The notes under the pieces were generated by a model. The model was given only the letters and a program-made list of their open reading frames with translations, ran no database searches and was not told where the DNA came from. A DNA stretch of 64,000 nt, taken from positions 736,001 through 800,000 of the forward strand of contig OZ240219.1 of NCBI GenBank assembly GCA_965197645.1. The letters run 5' to 3'. This DNA is from Dehalococcoidia bacterium (GTDB lineage Bacteria; Chloroflexota; Dehalococcoidia; Plut-88900). Every line of letters begins with the position of its first letter. The first letter of the stretch is position 1. The position numbers were made by a program, and so were the translations under genes. Below, in pieces: positions 2,676 through 43,158 of this stretch.

Positions 2676-2975
2676 GGCCTCTGCCATAACCCCAGATCGA
2701 GGGAATCCAGGAGGTTCTTGCCGTGGCAGGGCGTTGAAGAACCCTGTCGACCAGATCCCTCAGGACGAACTCCCCTCGCTCGCTACGACCACGACTGTTG
2801 GACTGGGCACGTACCTTTGTCATTGCGATCCGAGGCGAGGGGCAGGCTCTCAGACTCCCGGCAAAGGACCTTCACCCCCTCTCTCTTCTCTCATCTTATA
2901 GGTGCGGGGCCTCGCAGAGGGTTTGGGGGATGTGCCTCCGAAACACCAAAACGTCTCAGGGTGGGAGGGAGGGAG
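2676..2975. repeat. Degenerate mosaic of repeat families A and B
   Basis: Decayed GAGGGAATCCAGGAGG, CCCCTCGCTCGCTACGAC, GTCATTGCGA and TGGGGGATGTGCCTCC...CAGGGTGGGAGGGA pieces. Confidence 0.55.
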
Positions 2976-3007
2976 AAACTATCCCGGGGGGGGTGATTAG
3001 TGAGGAC

Positions 3008-3210
3008 AAAAGGAAAGCCCCGAAGTCTTTTGGTCTAAGACCAACCCGATGGACTAAGTCGGGAACTTCGGGGCCCGGTGCCTGTTGGGCTTCCGTATAC
3101 GGAACCCAAGGCATAGTCGTTTGCTAAATCCTTAGGTGCCGGCTACGTTACAAGCACCTCACTAGTCCGTTTATCATCTGTTTCCAATAGATCACCTCCT
3201 TTCTTAGTGT
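3008..3210 (-). ncRNA. Candidate structured small RNA / small-peptide transcript
   Basis: Own promoter, perfect SD, 14-codon ORF, long hairpin 3079-3113, and a three-way junction closed by GCCCCGAAGT/ACTTCGGGGC followed by a U-rich tail. Confidence 0.55.
3143..3187 (-). CDS. Putative 14-aa peptide METDDKRTSEVLVT
   Basis: AGAAAGGAGGTGATC (full complement of the 16S 3' end) with AGGAGG 7 nt before a TTG start; TAG stop. Confidence 0.45.
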   Translation of the reverse strand: METDDKRTSEVLVT

Positions 3211-3216
3211 ACCCAG

Positions 3217-3246
3217 AGATTACTACACAATTGAGCATGATGACAA
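3217..3246 (-). promoter_or_regulatory. Putative promoter of the small transcript
   Basis: TTGTCA-18 bp-TAATCT on the minus strand. Confidence 0.5.
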
Positions 3247-3257
3247 GTACCACCTCG

Positions 3258-3426
3258 GTGGTTGCGAGCAGGGAGAGTTAGTCCAGGGGGTGGAAAGAAG
3301 CGAAGCAATCTGGGGTGGAGGGGTAGATGTCCCTGTCGGGAAGGAGGCCAGACCTTAATAGATTGCCACGCCCCGACTTTGTCGGGGCTCGCAATGACGA
3401 GGGGGTGTCGTTGCGAGCGAGGCAAT
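3258..3426. repeat. Repeat family A palindromic doublet plus truncated half, abutting the GIY-YIG stop codon
   Basis: GTTGCGAGC..GCGAAGCAATC, ~50 bp spacer, GATTGCCACGCCCCGACTTTGTCGGGGCTCGCAATGAC (3361-3398), then GTCGTTGCGAGCGAGGCAATC. Confidence 0.9.
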
Positions 3427-3738
3427 CTAGTCCGCGGATGAATCCTGACCCAGCAGGTCAACGCTCATATCTCGCCAAGTTGGGTTCATGCCGTTTATCA
3501 AAGCCACTTTCTTTCGTCGTGGACCTGCCTTCAACAGCTTCTCACGAGAAATCGCAGCTTCGGCTGTTTCAGCCATTTCGTAATACACGAGGTGGTTCAC
3601 GTTGTACTTCGACGTAAAGCCAGGCGAAAGCTTTTCTCTGTGTTCGTAAACACGCCGGGGCAGGTTGTTGGTCACACCGGTGTAGAGAACAGTGTGCCTG
3701 GGGTTGGTCATGATGTAAACGTAGAAAGCTCTGTCCAA
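3427..3738 (-). CDS. Small stand-alone GIY-YIG nuclease
   Basis: FYVYIM...LYTGVTNNL.RRVYEH...GFTSKYNV..LVYYE...AISREKLLK...NPTWRD; 103 aa. Confidence 0.92.
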   Translation of the reverse strand: MDRAFYVYIMTNPRHTVLYTGVTNNLPRRVYEHREKLSPGFTSKYNVNHLVYYEMAETAEAAISREKLLKAGPRRKKVALINGMNPTWRDMSVDLLGQDSSAD

Positions 3739-3754
3739 GGTAATCCTCTTGAAA

Positions 3755-4100
3755 CGAGGTTACGGACTCAGCCTAACCGTTGCCGTCGTTGCGAGCGTGG
3801 GGGGGAAGTCCTGAGGGAAGTGGCAGGGAGCGAAGCATTCTGGGGTGGAGGGGTATATGTCCCTGTCGGGAAAGAGGCCAGACCTTAGTAGATTGCCACG
3901 CCCCGACTTCATCGGGGCTCGCAATGACGAGGCTACGGACTCAGCCTAACTGTTGCCGTGGTTGCGAGCAGGGGGAGTTGGTCCTGGGGATGGCCGGGAG
4001 CGAAGCAATCTGGGGTGGAGGGGTATATGTCCCTGTCGGGAAAGAGGCCAGACCTTAATAGATTGCCACGCCCCGACTTTGTCGGGGCTCGCAATGACGA
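3755..4100. repeat. Two tandem ~170-bp family A doublets upstream of the GIY-YIG gene
   Basis: Near-identical units; conserved arm at 3891-3928 and 4061-4098. Confidence 0.92.
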
Positions 4101-4145
4101 GGGCTGGGGGCCCGGTGTTCGAATGGGCCGGTTTGACAGGCAGCC

Positions 4146-5168
4146 CTAAAAGGCCAGGAGGCGGCGGGGGTTCTCGACGGTCATCTGATGTATGGCATCC
4201 TCGCTCACACCGGACTTTAGCAGCGCCGGGATGATCTCCTCGAAGAGCCGGCAGATGTTACGGCTCTGATACCTCGATGGGTCCTGCTCGGTGCTCGGAG
4301 GCCGCATTTCGTAAAGCACTATGTCGTGGGAGAGCACCATCTGGGAAGCATATCCCATGGCGACGAGGGCAGTTATTGTCCCCAGTCTCGCCGAGTCGCC
4401 CAGCTGTCCCAGGGAGTAGGCGAACATGTCAATCCCCACGTTGGCGCCCCGGTCCATGATCTGGGCCAGATGCCTGATGTTGGAGGTGCCGTCGGCGTGG
4501 CCGATGATGCACCTCGAAGGGTCCGCCCCCTCGTCCAGCAGCACGTCCAGCTGGCGCATCCCGATGTTACAGATAGCCCAATCGTAGCTATCGGTGTGGG
4601 TGGTGATGGTGACGCCCAGCTTCCTCTGCACCCGTGCAGCGGCCCTGAACCCCTTTTCCTCCACCTTGGTGGGGCCAAGAGCGTAGGGGACCAGCTCGTC
4701 GCCCCAGGAGGGTGTCGGCCCGGCTATCACCAGCTGGGGGCCGGTGGCCAGCTTGATGATGCCACACTTTGAACCGGTGCCCAAGGCGCCCTCGGTAATC
4801 TCCGTGGCGAAGAACTCCTCGACGGCGTCCAGGGGCCTGGCATGCCAGTAGTAGGGTATGCCCATGCTCTCGGTGTAGAAGCCGGTGGAGGAGACGATGT
4901 GGACCCCGCTGCGCCGGGATGCCTCGGTCAGGAGCCCCATGTAGCGGCCGCAGTCGGAAGTGGTGACGTCGACCAGGCAGGTGAGACCGTGTGCCTCTCT
5001 GGCGCCAGCCAACTCCTTCACCAGCTTTGCCAGCAGATCATCCTCGTCGTAGCTACCCTGGATATCGACCTCGGCGCCCTGCCAGTTGAAGAAAAGGTGC
5101 TCATGGGGCAGAACTACGCCCAACTCGCCGGGGGAGATGTCTCCCAGCACCGTCCTCACTATGGACAT
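4146..5168 (-). CDS. Phosphotriesterase-like amidohydrolase
   Basis: VRTVLGDI, HEH, GIIKLA, TTHT, IGHAD and LSHD metal-site motifs. Confidence 0.9.
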   Translation of the reverse strand: MSIVRTVLGDISPGELGVVLPHEHLFFNWQGAEVDIQGSYDEDDLLAKLVKELAGAREAHGLTCLVDVTTSDCGRYMGLLTEASRRSGVHIVSSTGFYTESMGIPYYWHARPLDAVEEFFATEITEGALGTGSKCGIIKLATGPQLVIAGPTPSWGDELVPYALGPTKVEEKGFRAAARVQRKLGVTITTHTDSYDWAICNIGMRQLDVLLDEGADPSRCIIGHADGTSNIRHLAQIMDRGANVGIDMFAYSLGQLGDSARLGTITALVAMGYASQMVLSHDIVLYEMRPPSTEQDPSRYQSRNICRLFEEIIPALLKSGVSEDAIHQMTVENPRRLLAF

Positions 5169-12589: not shown

Positions 12590-12910
12590 TTACCCACCAC
12601 CCGCCCTGGTACGTATTGTTTTTGGAGGCACATCCCCCACGCCCCCTGCCAGAGGCAGGGCGAGGCCCTGCACCCTTAACATGAGAGAAGATAGGGCAAC
12701 ATCTGAATCCGTGGTGTCGTCATTGCGAGACCCGACGAAGTCGGGGCGTGGCAATCTAACTGGGTATGGCCGTTGACCCCGGTAGAGTCGTATCCTCCTA
12801 CCCGCCCTCTAGGTGTTTCTTCCCACCCGCCCGCCCTGGGACGTTTTGTTGGGGATTGGGGGGCACATCCCCCACGCCCCCTGCCAGAGGGAAGCCCTCT
12901 GGACTCCTGG
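12590..12910. repeat. Mosaic cluster: family B, family A arm (12719-12756), family B
   Basis: Two CCCGCCCTGG..GCACATCCCCCACGCCCCCTGCCAGAGG copies around GTCATTGCGAGACCCGACGAAGTCGGGGCGTGGCAATC. Confidence 0.85.
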
Positions 12911-19011: not shown

Positions 19012-19017
19012 GGAAAT

Positions 19018-19140
19018 GAGCCTGTCTCAGAACCCTCCTTTGAGGGAGTCCAGAGGGAAACTTCCCTTTGGCAGAGGGCCTGGGGGATGTTCCCCAGCTA
19101 CAAAACCTTCCGGGGGAAGGGCGTATTTGTCTACGTGCCC
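19018..19140. repeat. Repeat family B copy
   Basis: GAGCCTGTCTCAGAAC end plus GGGAGTCCAGAGGG..TGGCAGAGGGCCTGGGGGATGTTCCCCAGC core. Confidence 0.75.
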
Positions 19141-24799: not shown

Positions 24800-25065
24800 C
24801 GCGGCGACGGCAACAGTTAAACTGAGTCCGTACCCCCGTCATTGCGAGCCTCGGCCAAGCCGGGGCGTGGCAATCCAGCCACGTCTAGTCGGTGCCCGCC
24901 AGAGGCGTGTACCCCCACCACCCCAGATTGTTTCGCTCCCTTGCACTCCCCTCAGAACCAACTCCCCTCGCTCGCAACGACGGCAACAGTTAGACCGAGT
25001 CCGTACCCCCCGTCATTGCGAGTCCCGACAACGTCGGGGCGTGGCAATCTAATTGCTTCGCTCCC
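24800..25065. repeat. Family A tandem cluster (reverse orientation)
   Basis: Arms at 24838-24875 and 25012-25049 with intervening GATTGTTTCGC..GCTCGCAACGAC partner arm. Confidence 0.88.
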
Positions 25066-25083
25066 GCCTGCTCCACACTGCAT

Positions 25084-25256
25084 GGGTCTGCCTCAGAACC
25101 TGGCGTCGAGGGAGTCCAGAGGGTTTCTTTCCCTTGATGGCAAATCGAGATTCGGTTGTGCAACCAGCGTCGAAGGTTGGAGTCAGCCTTTCCTACTGCG
25201 GGGGCTTGGGGGGACGTTCCCCCAACCCCAAAATCGTTTCAGGGTGGGTGGGATGG
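25084..25256. repeat. Family B copy with internal insertion
   Basis: GGGTCTGCCTCAGAAC end, GGGAGTCCAGAGGG, TGGGGGGACGTTCCCCCA..CAGGGTGGGTGGGA. Confidence 0.7.
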
Positions 25257-29092: not shown

Positions 29093-29405
29093 GATTGCCA
29101 CGCCCCGCCTTTGTCGGGGCTCGCAATGACATAGGTATGGATTCAATCTAACCCTGGGCGTCGTTGCGAGCGAGGGGAGTTAGTCCTAGGGGTTGAAGGG
29201 AGCGAAGCAATCTGGGGAGGAGGGGCATACGTCTCCGGTGGGCAATGACCAAACCTGGGTAGATTGCCACACCCCGACCTTGTCGGGGCTCGCAATGACG
29301 GAGGGGGCGTATCCGGGGAGTCCGGAGGGCATCCCTCTGGCAGGGGGTGTGGGGGATGTGCTCCCAATCTACAGAATAATCGTACCAGGGCGGGTGGGAG
29401 GGAAA
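29093..29405. repeat. Mosaic cluster: family A arms (29093-29130, 29262-29299) plus family B core
   Basis: Direct sequence match to other copies. Confidence 0.88.
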
Positions 29406-32083: not shown

Positions 32084-32481
32084 GATTGCCACGCCCCGAC
32101 TTTGTCGGGTCTCGTAATGACGAGGTGGTCGTTGCGAGCGAGGGGAGAGTTAGCCCTGGGGGGTGGAAGAGGGCGAAGCAATCTGGGTCGGAGGGGTATA
32201 TGCCCCTGCCAGTCAACAGCCAGGCCTGGCTAGATTGCCACGCCCCGACTTCGTCGGGTCTCGCAATGACGAGGTGGTCGTTGCGAGCAACGGGGGAGGT
32301 CGTCTTGAGGGAGTCGAAGGGAGCGAAGCAATCTGGGCCGGGGGGGTATATGCCCCTGCCAGTCAACAGCCAGACCTGACTAGATTGCCACGCCCCGACT
32401 TCGTCGGGTCTCGCAATGACGAGGTGGTCGTTGCGAGCGATGGGAGAGTTAGCCCTGGGGGTGGAAGAGGGCGAAGCAATG
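32084..32481. repeat. Three tandem ~150-bp family A units
   Basis: Arms at 32084-32121, 32233-32270 and 32383-32420, each followed by GTCGTTGCGAGC..GCGAAGCAAT. Confidence 0.92.
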
Positions 32482-36503: not shown

Positions 36504-36646
36504 GAGTGTGTCTCAAAGAGCCGGGCCTCTTTGTCCCGCCCACCCGCCCTGGAACGGTTTTGTAAATGGGGGCACATCCCCCAGGCCCCCTGCCAGAGGG
36601 AAGTATCCCTCTGGACTCCCTGAAATCAGGGTTCTGAGACAATCTC
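36504..36646. mobile_element. MITE-like family B copy (~143 bp)
   Basis: TIRs GAGTGTGTCTCAAA / rc GAGATTGTCTCAGAA around the family B core. Confidence 0.7.
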
Positions 36647-39184: not shown

Positions 39185-39355
39185 CCACCCCAGATTGCTT
39201 CGCTCCCTTCCATTCCACTCAGGACTCTCCCTCGCTCGCAACGACGGCAACAGCAACACTGAGCCCTTACCCTCGTCATTGCGAGCCTCGACAAGGTCGG
39301 GGCGTGGCAATCCAACCAGGTCTGACCGTTGCCCCGGCAAAAGCATATGCCCCAC
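39185..39355. repeat. Family A unit (reverse orientation)
   Basis: GATTGCTTCGC..GCTCGCAACGAC and arm 39275-39312. Confidence 0.85.
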
Positions 39356-41660: not shown

Positions 41661-41756
41661 GATTGCCACGCCCCGACTTTGTCGGGGCTCGCAATGACGA
41701 GGGCACGGGGCGGTGGGGGTTGGTCTTGAGGGAGGTCGAAGGGAGCGAAGCAATCC
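41661..41756. repeat. Family A arm plus partial partner arm
   Basis: Exact GATTGCCACGCCCCGACTTTGTCGGGGCTCGCAATGAC followed by GGGAGCGAAGCAATC. Confidence 0.88.
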
Positions 41757-43084: not shown

Positions 43085-43158
43085 ATACGCCCCTCCGGGG
43101 TCAACGGCCAGACCTAGCTGGATTGCTACGCCCCGACAGGGTCGAGGATCGCAATGAC
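43085..43158. repeat. Degenerate family A arm with spacer
   Basis: GATTGCTACGCCCCGACAGGGTCGAGGATCGCAATGAC at 43121-43158. Confidence 0.75.

Follow-up and report, generated by a model that had tools for sequence, protein, structure and literature searches.

The DNA analyzed here is a stretch of 64,000 nt (the window) that covers positions 736001-800000 of the genome of a Dehalococcoidia bacterium (GenBank assembly GCA_965197645.1, contig OZ240219.1). The genome, denoted G000, is a single contig (C1) of 3.21 Mb with a G+C content of 60.8%; further G numbers denote genomes of a sample of the same class, and L numbers denote homologue loci. Close to the left end of the window, on the minus strand at 3427-3738, lies an ssn-type gene for a single-domain GIY-YIG nuclease of 103 aa, and this gene is set among copies of a palindromic repeat that is dispersed throughout the genome. 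The open reading frame (ORF) starts with TTG behind an AGAGGA ribosome site and ends with TAG. The GIY-YIG catalytic domain (PF01541) spans residues 5-71 (E 1.3e-14) and is the sole Pfam match of the protein; an NCBIfam scan yielded no match, and no DNA-binding domain beyond GIY-YIG was detected in Pfam or NCBIfam. The gene is intact, is present in a single copy, and retains the catalytic residues. The genome has no other small GIY-YIG gene; two further PF01541 matches fall into open frames of 633 and 211 aa.

Two types of repeat units were distinguished. S units are hairpins of 38-39 nt with the consensus GTCATTGCGAG.CCCGACaAaGTCGGGGCGTGGCAATC, and L units are 48-60 nt long and consist of an S-type head and tail that enclose a G-rich interior. 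The features around the gene are as follows (coordinates, strand, feature, and basis of the assignment; regex, regular expression; ssDNA, single-stranded DNA):

3258-3310 (+): L unit of doublet 1, GTGGTTGCGAGC...G-rich interior...GCGAAGCAATC, on the gene's 3' side; sequence comparison
3311-3360 (no strand): tail-to-tail spacer of doublet 1, 50 nt; repeat comparison
3361-3398 (-): S unit of doublet 1, a 38-nt hairpin that reads GTCATTGCGAG-CCCCGAC-AAA-GTCGGGG-CGTGGCAATC on the minus strand; regex and ssDNA fold (-13 kcal/mol, z -4.26)
3407-3427 (+): minimal unit of 21 nt, head GTCGTTGCGAG plus tail GGCAATC, without interior; regex
3427-3738 (-): ssn-type gene, 103-aa single-domain GIY-YIG nuclease; Pfam and BLASTP
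3754-3787 (no strand): linker ACGAGGTTACGGACTCAGCCTAACCGTTGCC; 84% identity between 3754-3816 and 3927-3989, and sequence reading
3788-3842 (+): L unit with a mutated tail, GCATTC, the head pointing away from the gene; sequence and repeat comparison
3891-3928 (-): S unit of doublet 2; regex
3958-4010 (+): L unit of doublet 3; regex
4061-4098 (-): S unit of doublet 3; regex

Altogether, the gene sits among three inverted doublets of about 146 bp each, with pairwise identities of 79-93%. Two of these are arranged in tandem on the gene's 5' side (3788-3933 and 3958-4103, 170 bp apart). The minimal unit, for which no significant ssDNA fold was obtained, lies 8 nt from the S head of doublet 1 and overlaps the gene's stop codon by 1 nt. 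The L unit at 3788-3842 is located 50 nt upstream of the start codon, and its mutated tail is not matched by the repeat regex. The linker at 3754-3787 comes after an S head in gene-less array units; here, the gene cassette replaces the S unit. A distant copy at 32130-32275 is only 63% identical to the reference copy, and the 85-nt spacer/S segments of distant copies reach 65-73%. These coordinates confirm the arrangement described in the original prediction for this DNA, that is, doublets around the 103-aa gene, a truncated unit at its stop codon and two tandem doublets on its 5' side, and the contrast between nearly identical local copies and diverged distant ones noted there was also recovered (79-93% versus 63-73%).

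A search of the whole genome with the regex GTC[AG]TTGCGA (at most 1 mismatch)...GCAATC returned 109 matches, namely 70 S units, 33 L units and 6 others (the minimal unit beside the gene, one hybrid with an ATTCC-type head, and four matches that are likely due to chance or uncertain). Thus, about 103 units are present at 57 loci. The ATTGC repeat pattern is not a product of chance because the exact pattern GTCRTTGCGAN{10,40}GCAATC occurs 79 times in the genome, compared to 0 occurrences of the pattern read backwards. The 57 loci follow mosaic rules, with spacings of 29 or 5-6 nt between L and S units arranged head to head and of 49-51 nt between S and L units arranged tail to tail. An L unit alone was found at just one of the 57 loci, and the flanks of the apparently solo S units are conserved and represent fragments of doublet linkers. 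Therefore, what is repeated is the composite doublet, with a length of about 146-170 bp. As ssDNA, the S unit forms a fold of -13 kcal/mol (z -4.3), none of 200 shuffled sequences being equally stable, and the whole doublet folds via head-head and tail-tail pairing (z -2.2 and -3.2). Within the apical stem, paired changes are found among the copies, for example, CCCGAC/GTCGGG versus CTCGGC/GCCGGG. The units are essentially intergenic: 67 of 105 are located in the 12% of the genome outside a greedy set of ORFs of at least 100 aa, and the other 38 are mostly found in short ORFs made up by the arrays themselves or at most about 150 nt from an ORF end. Elsewhere in the window, the regex and the locus survey identified the following copies (numbers between units are spacings in nt; BIME, bacterial interspersed mosaic element):

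12719-12756 (+): solo S unit
24838-25049 (+): two S units in direct orientation, 136 nt apart
29093-29299 (no strand): array S(-) 29 L(+) 49 S(-)
32084-32420 (no strand): BIME-like array S(-) 6 L(+) 49 S(-) 6 L(+) 49 S(-)
39193-39312 (no strand): head-to-head doublet L(-) 29 S(+)
41661-41698 (-): solo S unit
43121-43158 (-): solo S unit, diverged

Membership in the Ssn family

The Ssn family (CDD cd10448) consists of small GIY-YIG enzymes that are flanked by their own hairpin repeats, NTS or SRM (Chenal et al., 2025, Nature Communications, PMC11893778). SsnA of Neisseria meningitidis is a protein of 94 aa that requires Y6, Y17 and E64, binds just one of the two strands of the NTS hairpin CGTCATTCCCGCGMAVGCGGGAATCYRG, and this only in ssDNA, cleaves a few nucleotides upstream of the hairpin, and acts neither on double-stranded DNA (dsDNA) nor on RNA (PMC11893778). 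Mutagenesis of NTS showed that the three nucleotides before the palindrome weigh most for cleavage, and the C after the palindrome for binding; SsnA modulates natural transformation (PMC11893778). With a degenerate SRM pattern, a repeat was detected near 71% of the Ssn homologues, and on both sides of the gene in 42%, and the Discussion of that paper likens the NTS-ssnA-NTS arrangement to insertion sequences (IS) and to the repetitive extragenic palindromic (REP) repeats, BIMEs and the REP-associated tyrosine transposase (RAYT) (PMC11893778).

The threshold for membership in that paper is a tblastn E value below 1e-10 to SsnA (PMC11893778). In a tblastn search of a plasmid collection with the 103-aa protein, a Neisseria gonorrhoeae chromosome record (filed there as a plasmid) was matched at E 1e-20; therefore, the protein is an Ssn homologue by the published sequence criterion. 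The gonococcal SsnA orthologue, which was used for the comparison in place of the N. meningitidis 8013 protein, is a 94-aa ORF with Y6, Y17 and E64 that is located among 9 NTS copies in 3.3 kb. The BLASTP alignment of the two proteins is gapless, with 49% identity over 90 aa (E 6e-31), and Y8, Y19 and E66 of the 103-aa protein align with Y6, Y17 and E64. A homologue from Azospirillum lipoferum 4B, one of the 29 genomes that defined the SRM pattern (PMC11893778), is 48% identical to the 103-aa protein. By sequence, the protein thus belongs to the Ssn family, with the catalytic residues kept. A sequence search of the PDB returned weak matches only (SLX1, E 0.04; UPF0213 protein BH0048, E 0.41), and a YhbQ/UPF0213-like identity was not supported. 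According to Supplementary Data 4 of the published study, the reference genomes of Kuenenia, Melioribacter and Dehalogenimonas are cd10448-positive, with an SRM enrichment of only 1.0-2.0-fold (PMC11893778); proteins from Kuenenia and Melioribacter metagenome-assembled genomes (MAGs) are 59-65% identical to the 103-aa protein and may be products of the genes flagged there, which is indirect evidence for a cd10448 assignment.

The repeats described here share the frame (C)GTC-ATT...AAT-C, followed by TAG, CAG or TGG, and the bases GTC and C that flank the S hairpin are the very bases found critical for cleavage and binding in the published mutagenesis (PMC11893778). From the oligonucleotides NTS75, NTS37 and NTS28 and the 20-nt product described there, we placed the cut of the N. 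meningitidis enzyme 5 nt 5' of GTC (PMC11893778). Taken together, the gene probably encodes a site-specific ssDNA endonuclease of the Ssn family, with the surrounding repeats as its cognate recognition hairpins, a variant of NTS/SRM. Binding of the S hairpin in ssDNA, with a nick 4-5 nt 5' of GTC, is the most likely activity of the enzyme, as predicted from the homologues. The original prediction had proposed that the enzyme may cut and propagate the repeats, and had stated that no experimental demonstration was known. The latter statement is out of date, since ssDNA cleavage beside the flanking hairpins has been reported (Chenal et al., 2025; PMC11893778). Hence, cutting is supported by the homologues, which cut ssDNA next to hairpins; propagation is a hypothesis.

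A search of 12 of the 14 supplementary files of that paper (all except 13 and 14, which cover strains and plasmids) did not find the ATTGC motif. In the literature since 2024, SsnA GIY-YIG enzymes were found only in Chenal et al. (2025). No paper was found that joins GIY-YIG enzymes with repetitive extragenic palindromic repeats, nor any that joins them with YhbQ; matches for GIY-YIG combined with REPIN or miniature inverted-repeat transposable elements were irrelevant by title and abstract or by author name. For the 9-mer CATTGCGAG, there were only primer-type matches among the matches listed.

Association of gene and hairpin type across genomes

To characterize the association more generally, we analyzed 80 loci that encode relatives with 52-75% identity, from named genomes of many phyla. 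An ATTGC-type unit is present within 200 bp of the gene at 49 or more of these loci (background 0.017 per 200 bp), and an inverted pair, that is, a unit upstream and an inverted unit downstream of the gene, at 27 or more, both values being lower bounds owing to ORF-start errors. A generalized finder (GTCRTY-XY...Y'X'-AATC) was applied to 113 loci, of which 29 came from the class sample and 3 from named records of the plasmid collection, and detected a unit within 250 bp at 100 of the 113 loci; the GC type was found at 70 loci, the CT type at 24, the CC type at 6, and none at 13. The density of units is 4.94 per kb near the homologue genes and 0.136 per kb elsewhere, a 36-fold excess. An enrichment of repeats near homologues, a test suggested in the original prediction, was thus found, and the core idea of that prediction, a GIY-YIG nuclease with palindromic repeats of its own in the position of RAYT, holds. 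In agreement with this idea, no match to the Y1/HUH family PF01797, the transposase family covered by the survey, was found anywhere in the genome.

When the hairpin type is mapped on a maximum-likelihood tree built from the 113 proteins, 8 changes are counted, whereas 200 shuffles of the labels gave 27.2 changes on average and never fewer than 22; kin share labels, so that this test overstates independence. The GC (ATTGC) type is represented in at least 18 phyla and the CT type in at least 10, so that the hairpin label follows the protein, not the host. Gene and hairpin type travel together across many phyla; the original prediction had suggested testing whether repeat copy number and consensus co-vary with the nuclease and its phylogeny.

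The class sample comprises 300 other genomes of the same class, searched for homologues with a threshold of E<=1e-10; one of them, G243, is marked as unpublished, and no claim is based on it alone. The ATTGC pattern is present in 106 of the 300 genomes, with up to 264 copies (0-1 for the reversed control), and a homologue in 95. The two features are distributed as follows:

At least 10 ATTGC repeats: gene found in 35 genomes, gene not found in 31
Fewer than 10 ATTGC repeats: gene found in 60 genomes, gene not found in 174

This amounts to an odds ratio of 3.3, a statistic that ignores relatedness. The closeness of the homologue is reflected in the repeat numbers: among the 23 genomes with a best homologue at E<1e-30, 19 contain at least 10 ATTGC repeats and only 1 contains none (median 40 units), and among the 34 genomes with a best homologue at E 1e-25 to 1e-20, the corresponding numbers are 3 and 21.

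The arrangement of the units varies among genomes. In the small single-contig genomes G213 and G167, the units are mostly solo or in direct tandem, and blocks of units on one strand alternate with blocks on the other. On contig C1 of G213, the units are on the minus strand up to about 573 kb and again beyond 1.73 Mb, and from 576 kb to 1.15 Mb 32 of 34 are on the plus strand. Unit orientation in these two genomes may thus be tied to the direction of replication or transcription, but no replichore bias was observed for the solo S units of G000 (12-/7+ and 5+/5-). A Planktothrix agardhii plasmid (L083; NZ_LR882964.1, 17350-20628) carries an Ssn homologue with 58.5% identity (tblastn) between an MmeI-type restriction-modification gene and the DISARM gene drmA. 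The units on its flanks are of a third hairpin type, GTCATTCTGAG...CGAAGAATC, and the head of this type also occurs there in direct tandem.

Possible route of repeat spread and competing explanations

The anatomy of the locus points to a possible route by which gene and repeats could have multiplied. The S hairpin would be extruded in ssDNA, and the enzyme, by homology, would bind one strand only and would nick 4-5 nt 5' of GTC. Recombinational repair of the nick from another copy would then copy the gene cassette and the L-spacer-S doublets of about 146 bp beside resident units. Such copying would yield head-to-head linkers of 5-8 nt, BIME-like arrays and an excess of repeat loci around the gene. 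Nick-driven copying of cassette and doublets is a tentative reading, to which we assign somewhat less than an even chance. Its more specific form, in which repair-mediated copying is biased to act in cis, is directed into a cut site 4-5 nt outside a resident hairpin, and leaves a cloud of repeats that thins out with distance, is doubtful. Under the copying reading, the system may be a hydrolytic-nuclease analogue of REP/RAYT that was acquired horizontally.

The junctions of the cassette bear on this scheme. At the S head, gene-less arrays read GAC-GAGG-CTACGG... and the gene-bearing array reads GAC-GAGG-GGGTGTCGTTGCGAGC..., so that the two cease to be homologous 4 nt outside the S head, at a distance of 1 nt from the published cut position. 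In G261, three cassette copies in different contexts are 91-96% identical over 441-479 bp, and for one of the three pairings, that of copies A and B, the boundary likewise lies 4 nt outside the S head. In one Melioribacter MAG (L018 and L019), a cassette of 473 bp, consisting of unit, gene and inverted unit, is located at 2924-3396 of both loci, 99.2% identical in two contexts. Head-to-head linkers of 5, 6 and 8 nt were observed, the residue expected from insertion at the predicted cut site. Loci L010 and L015 are identical over all 6273 bases and, hence, uninformative on the cassette ends. A 6-bp direct repeat, ACGAGG (3399-3404 and 3754-3759), was considered as a target duplication and is not relied on, as it could equally be the remnant of a second S-head/linker junction.

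The distribution of the repeats was analyzed in five single-contig genomes, counting loci more than 1 kb from the gene, with "near" defined as within 200 kb on either side in G000 and within 6.25% of the genome length on either side elsewhere; the sizes of the comparison genomes are rounded, and G167 and G213 belong to the same genus:

G000: 21 of 54 ATTGC loci near the gene, 6.7 expected, P 8e-7
G063: 19 of 50 loci near the gene, 6.2 expected, P 4e-6
G213: 9 of 28 loci near the gene, 3.5 expected, P 0.0055
G167: 5 of 15 loci near the gene, 1.9 expected, P 0.03
G027: 2 of 10 loci near the gene, 1.2 expected, P 0.36 (not significant)

The repeat loci are thus concentrated around the gene in G000, where 9 of the 54 were found even within 50 kb on either side (1.7 expected).

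Several observations weigh against the recognition of these repeats by the enzyme, against their copying, or against both. Not one of the 109 regex matches coincides with a site of the published SRM pattern, and such sites are not enriched (32 in the genome versus 46 in a Markov-1 simulated genome); the pattern characterizes the search tool of that paper rather than the enzyme family. The L unit alone folds as ssDNA no better than shuffled sequences (z 0.19). Because enzymes of the GIY-YIG class act by hydrolysis and are unable to join DNA strands, any spread needs host repair. Cassette ends do not always coincide with the predicted cut site: the other two pairings in G261 end inside the 3' unit, the left boundary there lies about 50 nt upstream of the head of the 5' unit, and the L018/L019 cassette extends 23 and 73 nt past the units, with 18-bp inverted repeats of its own, CAATGCTGTCAGGTTAAG, at its ends. 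The clustering is not significant in G027, as listed above, and in G000 a second repeat family, the ATTCC type described below, also tends to lie near the gene, though less markedly (of 17 loci, 4 are within 200 kb on either side, 2.1 expected), and does not differ significantly from the ATTGC type (Fisher P 0.38), so that the clustering may reflect a regional effect. Repeat-rich genomes that lack the gene, which the original prediction had named as evidence against itself, were encountered in part: no match (E<=1e-10) was found in 21 of the 51 class genomes with at least 20 ATTGC repeats. When 5 of these 21 were re-checked with PF01541, a small GIY-YIG ORF was present in 3; in the other 2, which are 98-99% complete, the only match above the cut-off was of UvrC size, one of them also having a sub-threshold PF01541 match in a frame of 162 aa. 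Similarly, four same-family genomes harbor 24-78 ATTCC units without an Ssn match, and this genome harbors 23-24 orphan ATTCC units and no second small GIY-YIG gene.

Among the alternatives to copying by the nuclease, a domesticated host function fares best and is nevertheless unlikely. The enzyme would act as an ssDNA "restriction" activity or as a modulator of recombination that cuts incoming or exposed strands at hairpins, a role that has been proposed for SsnA of Neisseria (PMC11893778), and the repeats would be kept for tuning recombination, transformation or gene flow around particular genes. The modulation of natural transformation by SsnA is the sole biological role in the family with experimental support (PMC11893778), and a gene that is single-copy and intact with its catalytic residues present, accompanied by units that are essentially intergenic, would fit such a role. 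However, the distribution is patchy, the ATTGC hairpin type being present in none of 11 same-family genomes; gene and hairpin move together across at least 18 phyla; cassettes are multi-copy in some genomes; and many genomes keep repeats without the gene. Taken together, these four features are a better fit to a selfish transferable element than to a function conserved for the host, although both readings may hold at once.

Quite unlikely, in our estimate, is that the gene is a homing passenger, which nicks a unit and is copied into it without multiplying the units, the repeats being spread otherwise, by replication slippage, recombination or another transposase. Within the window, the gene does occupy the place of an S unit inside an array, and the interior of the 3' unit differs among the cassette copies of G261, which places the right junction within or at a resident unit. 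Repeats are, moreover, abundant and persistent in gene-less genomes, and tandem arrays with nearly identical spacers (79-93%) can arise by local duplication. Yet the survey, which among transposases covered the Y1 family only, found no such enzyme in the genome; the repeat type is tied to the protein clade; and the largest ATTGC populations accompany the closest homologues, with the median of 40 units given above. Finally, it is very improbable that the hairpins act at the RNA level or in regulation (as terminators, small RNAs or protein-binding sites), are unrelated to the nuclease and adjoin its gene by coincidence: although the S unit is a stable stem-loop in intergenic DNA, the repeats matched no Rfam family at the gathering or E<=1 thresholds, no T-run follows the S stem, the same kind of flanking is seen at 100 of the 113 homologue loci, the local excess of units being 36-fold, and the published homologues do not bind RNA (PMC11893778).

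The history of the repeats in this lineage is consistent with a horizontal arrival. ATTGC units are missing from all 11 same-family genomes. Instead, ATTCC-type units (GTCATTCCGA...GGAATC) are present in 10 of the 11, with 11-78 copies each. An Ssn homologue is encoded in 7 of the 11, the best matches inspected being 45-61% identical to the 103-aa protein, and at the two same-family loci that were inspected (L111 and L112) it lies between inverted ATTCC units. Outside the family, the nearest relatives of the 103-aa protein were found in a Dehalococcoidia MAG (L001, 75% identity) and in G261 (69%). The orphan ATTCC units of G000 are partly arranged as inverted pairs about 150 bp apart and are found, for example, at C1 positions 78723-78899, 187556-187731, 388599-388775, 695098-695275, 1413930-1414104 and 2857477-2857671. 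The simplest reading is that the ATTGC cassette was acquired horizontally and then expanded, and that the ATTCC units represent an older population that is now orphaned. An empty-site comparison with the 11 same-family genomes matched only the gene for a metallo-beta-lactamase-fold protein at 880-1782 (68-74%); because the neighbourhood is not syntenic in these relatives, no comparison of filled and empty sites is possible.

The surroundings of the array contain further repeated sequences. To the right of the array, a 340-aa ORF (4146-5168, minus strand) lies in a stretch with a paralogue elsewhere in the genome (4146-5186 versus C1 positions 78962-79993, 72% identity), and the paralogous stretch also adjoins repeat units, there of the ATTCC type (78723-78899). 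On the other side, an Rfam match to Ms_IGR-5 (RF02471, an actinobacterial small RNA) at 3009-3210 on the minus strand adjoins the array (51.3 bits, gathering threshold 45). The 5' end of this match resembles a strong Shine-Dalgarno sequence, and 10 of the 11 same-family genomes contain the Ms_IGR-5 stretch (query 2087-2315) with 71-78% conservation, at other, non-syntenic places. A segment at about 1900-2184, inside an ORF at 1776-2159 on the plus strand, recurs at C1 positions 90209-90493 (97%) and 1385143-1385416 (92%) and is found at 83% in relatives; by eye, we take this ORF to resemble the C-terminal part of an integrase-type transposase. This recurrent segment suggests an IS fragment and local rearrangement adjoining the repeat-flanked gene. 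In addition, a second dispersed, partly palindromic repeat family, GAGTCCAGAGGG...CCCTCTGGCAGGGGG...GGGGGAYGT.CCCC, is often located beside S/L arrays. Its copies in the window are at 190-271, 2911-2935, 12613-12655, 12848-12890, 19016-19097, 25082-25224, 29332-29366 and 36557-36599, and a very similar motif adjoins ATTGC units in G063 (L105).

The findings have several implications. The ATTGC hairpin type, which is represented in at least 18 phyla and, in the class sample, by up to about 260 copies per genome, is missed by the published SRM search, and the reach of Ssn/hairpin pairs has therefore been underestimated. Each hairpin type is a ready-made pair of enzyme and site for ssDNA tools. 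The presence of one repeat family with its gene and one without in the same genome provides a natural contrast for the maintenance of repeats by the enzyme, and the clustering of repeats and the junctions near the predicted cut yield predictions on the propagation of Ssn repeats that can be tested in strains. If the more specific, cis-biased form of the copying reading is true, no REPIN-type system driven by a nuclease that only hydrolyses DNA would have preceded this one, and successive generations of repeats would be visible in one genome, the inherited orphan ATTCC family and the horizontally arrived ATTGC family with its gene.

Comparison with known systems

GIY-YIG homing endonucleases have a separate DNA-binding domain and cut dsDNA (PMC11893778). 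The present system resembles I-TevI and the Seg proteins in its GIY-YIG catalytic domain and as a selfish gene that host repair could copy into a site after cleavage, and it differs in that the catalytic domain stands alone here and that the characterized relatives cut only ssDNA. As in IS200/IS605 elements, the gene is located between two hairpin ends, and recognition of subterminal ssDNA hairpins with cleavage a few nucleotides away is predicted. However, both ends of IS200/IS605 elements lie on the same strand and are cut by TnpA, whereas the flanking units described here are inverted, the predicted cuts are on opposite strands, and the enzyme class is different.

The resemblance to REP, BIME and REPIN repeats with RAYT is more extensive. 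In both cases, a palindromic repeat that is dispersed in the genome forms inverted doublets on either side of a single-copy enzyme gene, the doublets are intergenic and form mosaic arrays with fixed linkers, and the repeats can outlive the gene. Recognition of an ssDNA hairpin with a conserved 5' tag is a further shared feature, predicted here from the homologues. The 5' tag of REP repeats is GTAG, and the tag here, GTC(A/G)TTGCGAG, is different. Above all, RAYT is an HUH Y1 tyrosine transposase (PF01797), whereas the enzyme here is a hydrolytic GIY-YIG nuclease that acts without a covalent intermediate and cannot rejoin strands alone. A classification as REP/RAYT was therefore rejected on the enzyme class, the gene being of the GIY-YIG type and PF01797 being without a match in the genome.

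The closest parallel is Ssn/SsnA itself. Both are single-domain GIY-YIG proteins of about 94-103 aa with the same catalytic Tyr, Tyr and Glu; both genes lie between inverted copies of a dispersed hairpin with the (C)GTC-ATT...AAT-C frame and YRG-like bases after it; and in both the repeats are clustered, with hundreds of copies in some genomes. In contrast to NTS/SRM, which read ATTCCCGCG...CGCGGGAAT, the palindrome here is ATTGC...GCAAT and contains both an internal loop (GAG / CGNR) and an apical stem that varies. Also unlike the published Ssn cases, a second, non-hairpin L unit pairs with S in doublets of about 146 bp with fixed linkers of 29, 5-6 and 49-51 nt, and the host is free-living and Chloroflexota-like, whereas theirs is a symbiont or pathogen. 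Taken together, the system of gene plus hairpin was already published in 2025, and the locus described here adds a further member, with a hairpin variant that the published search missed.

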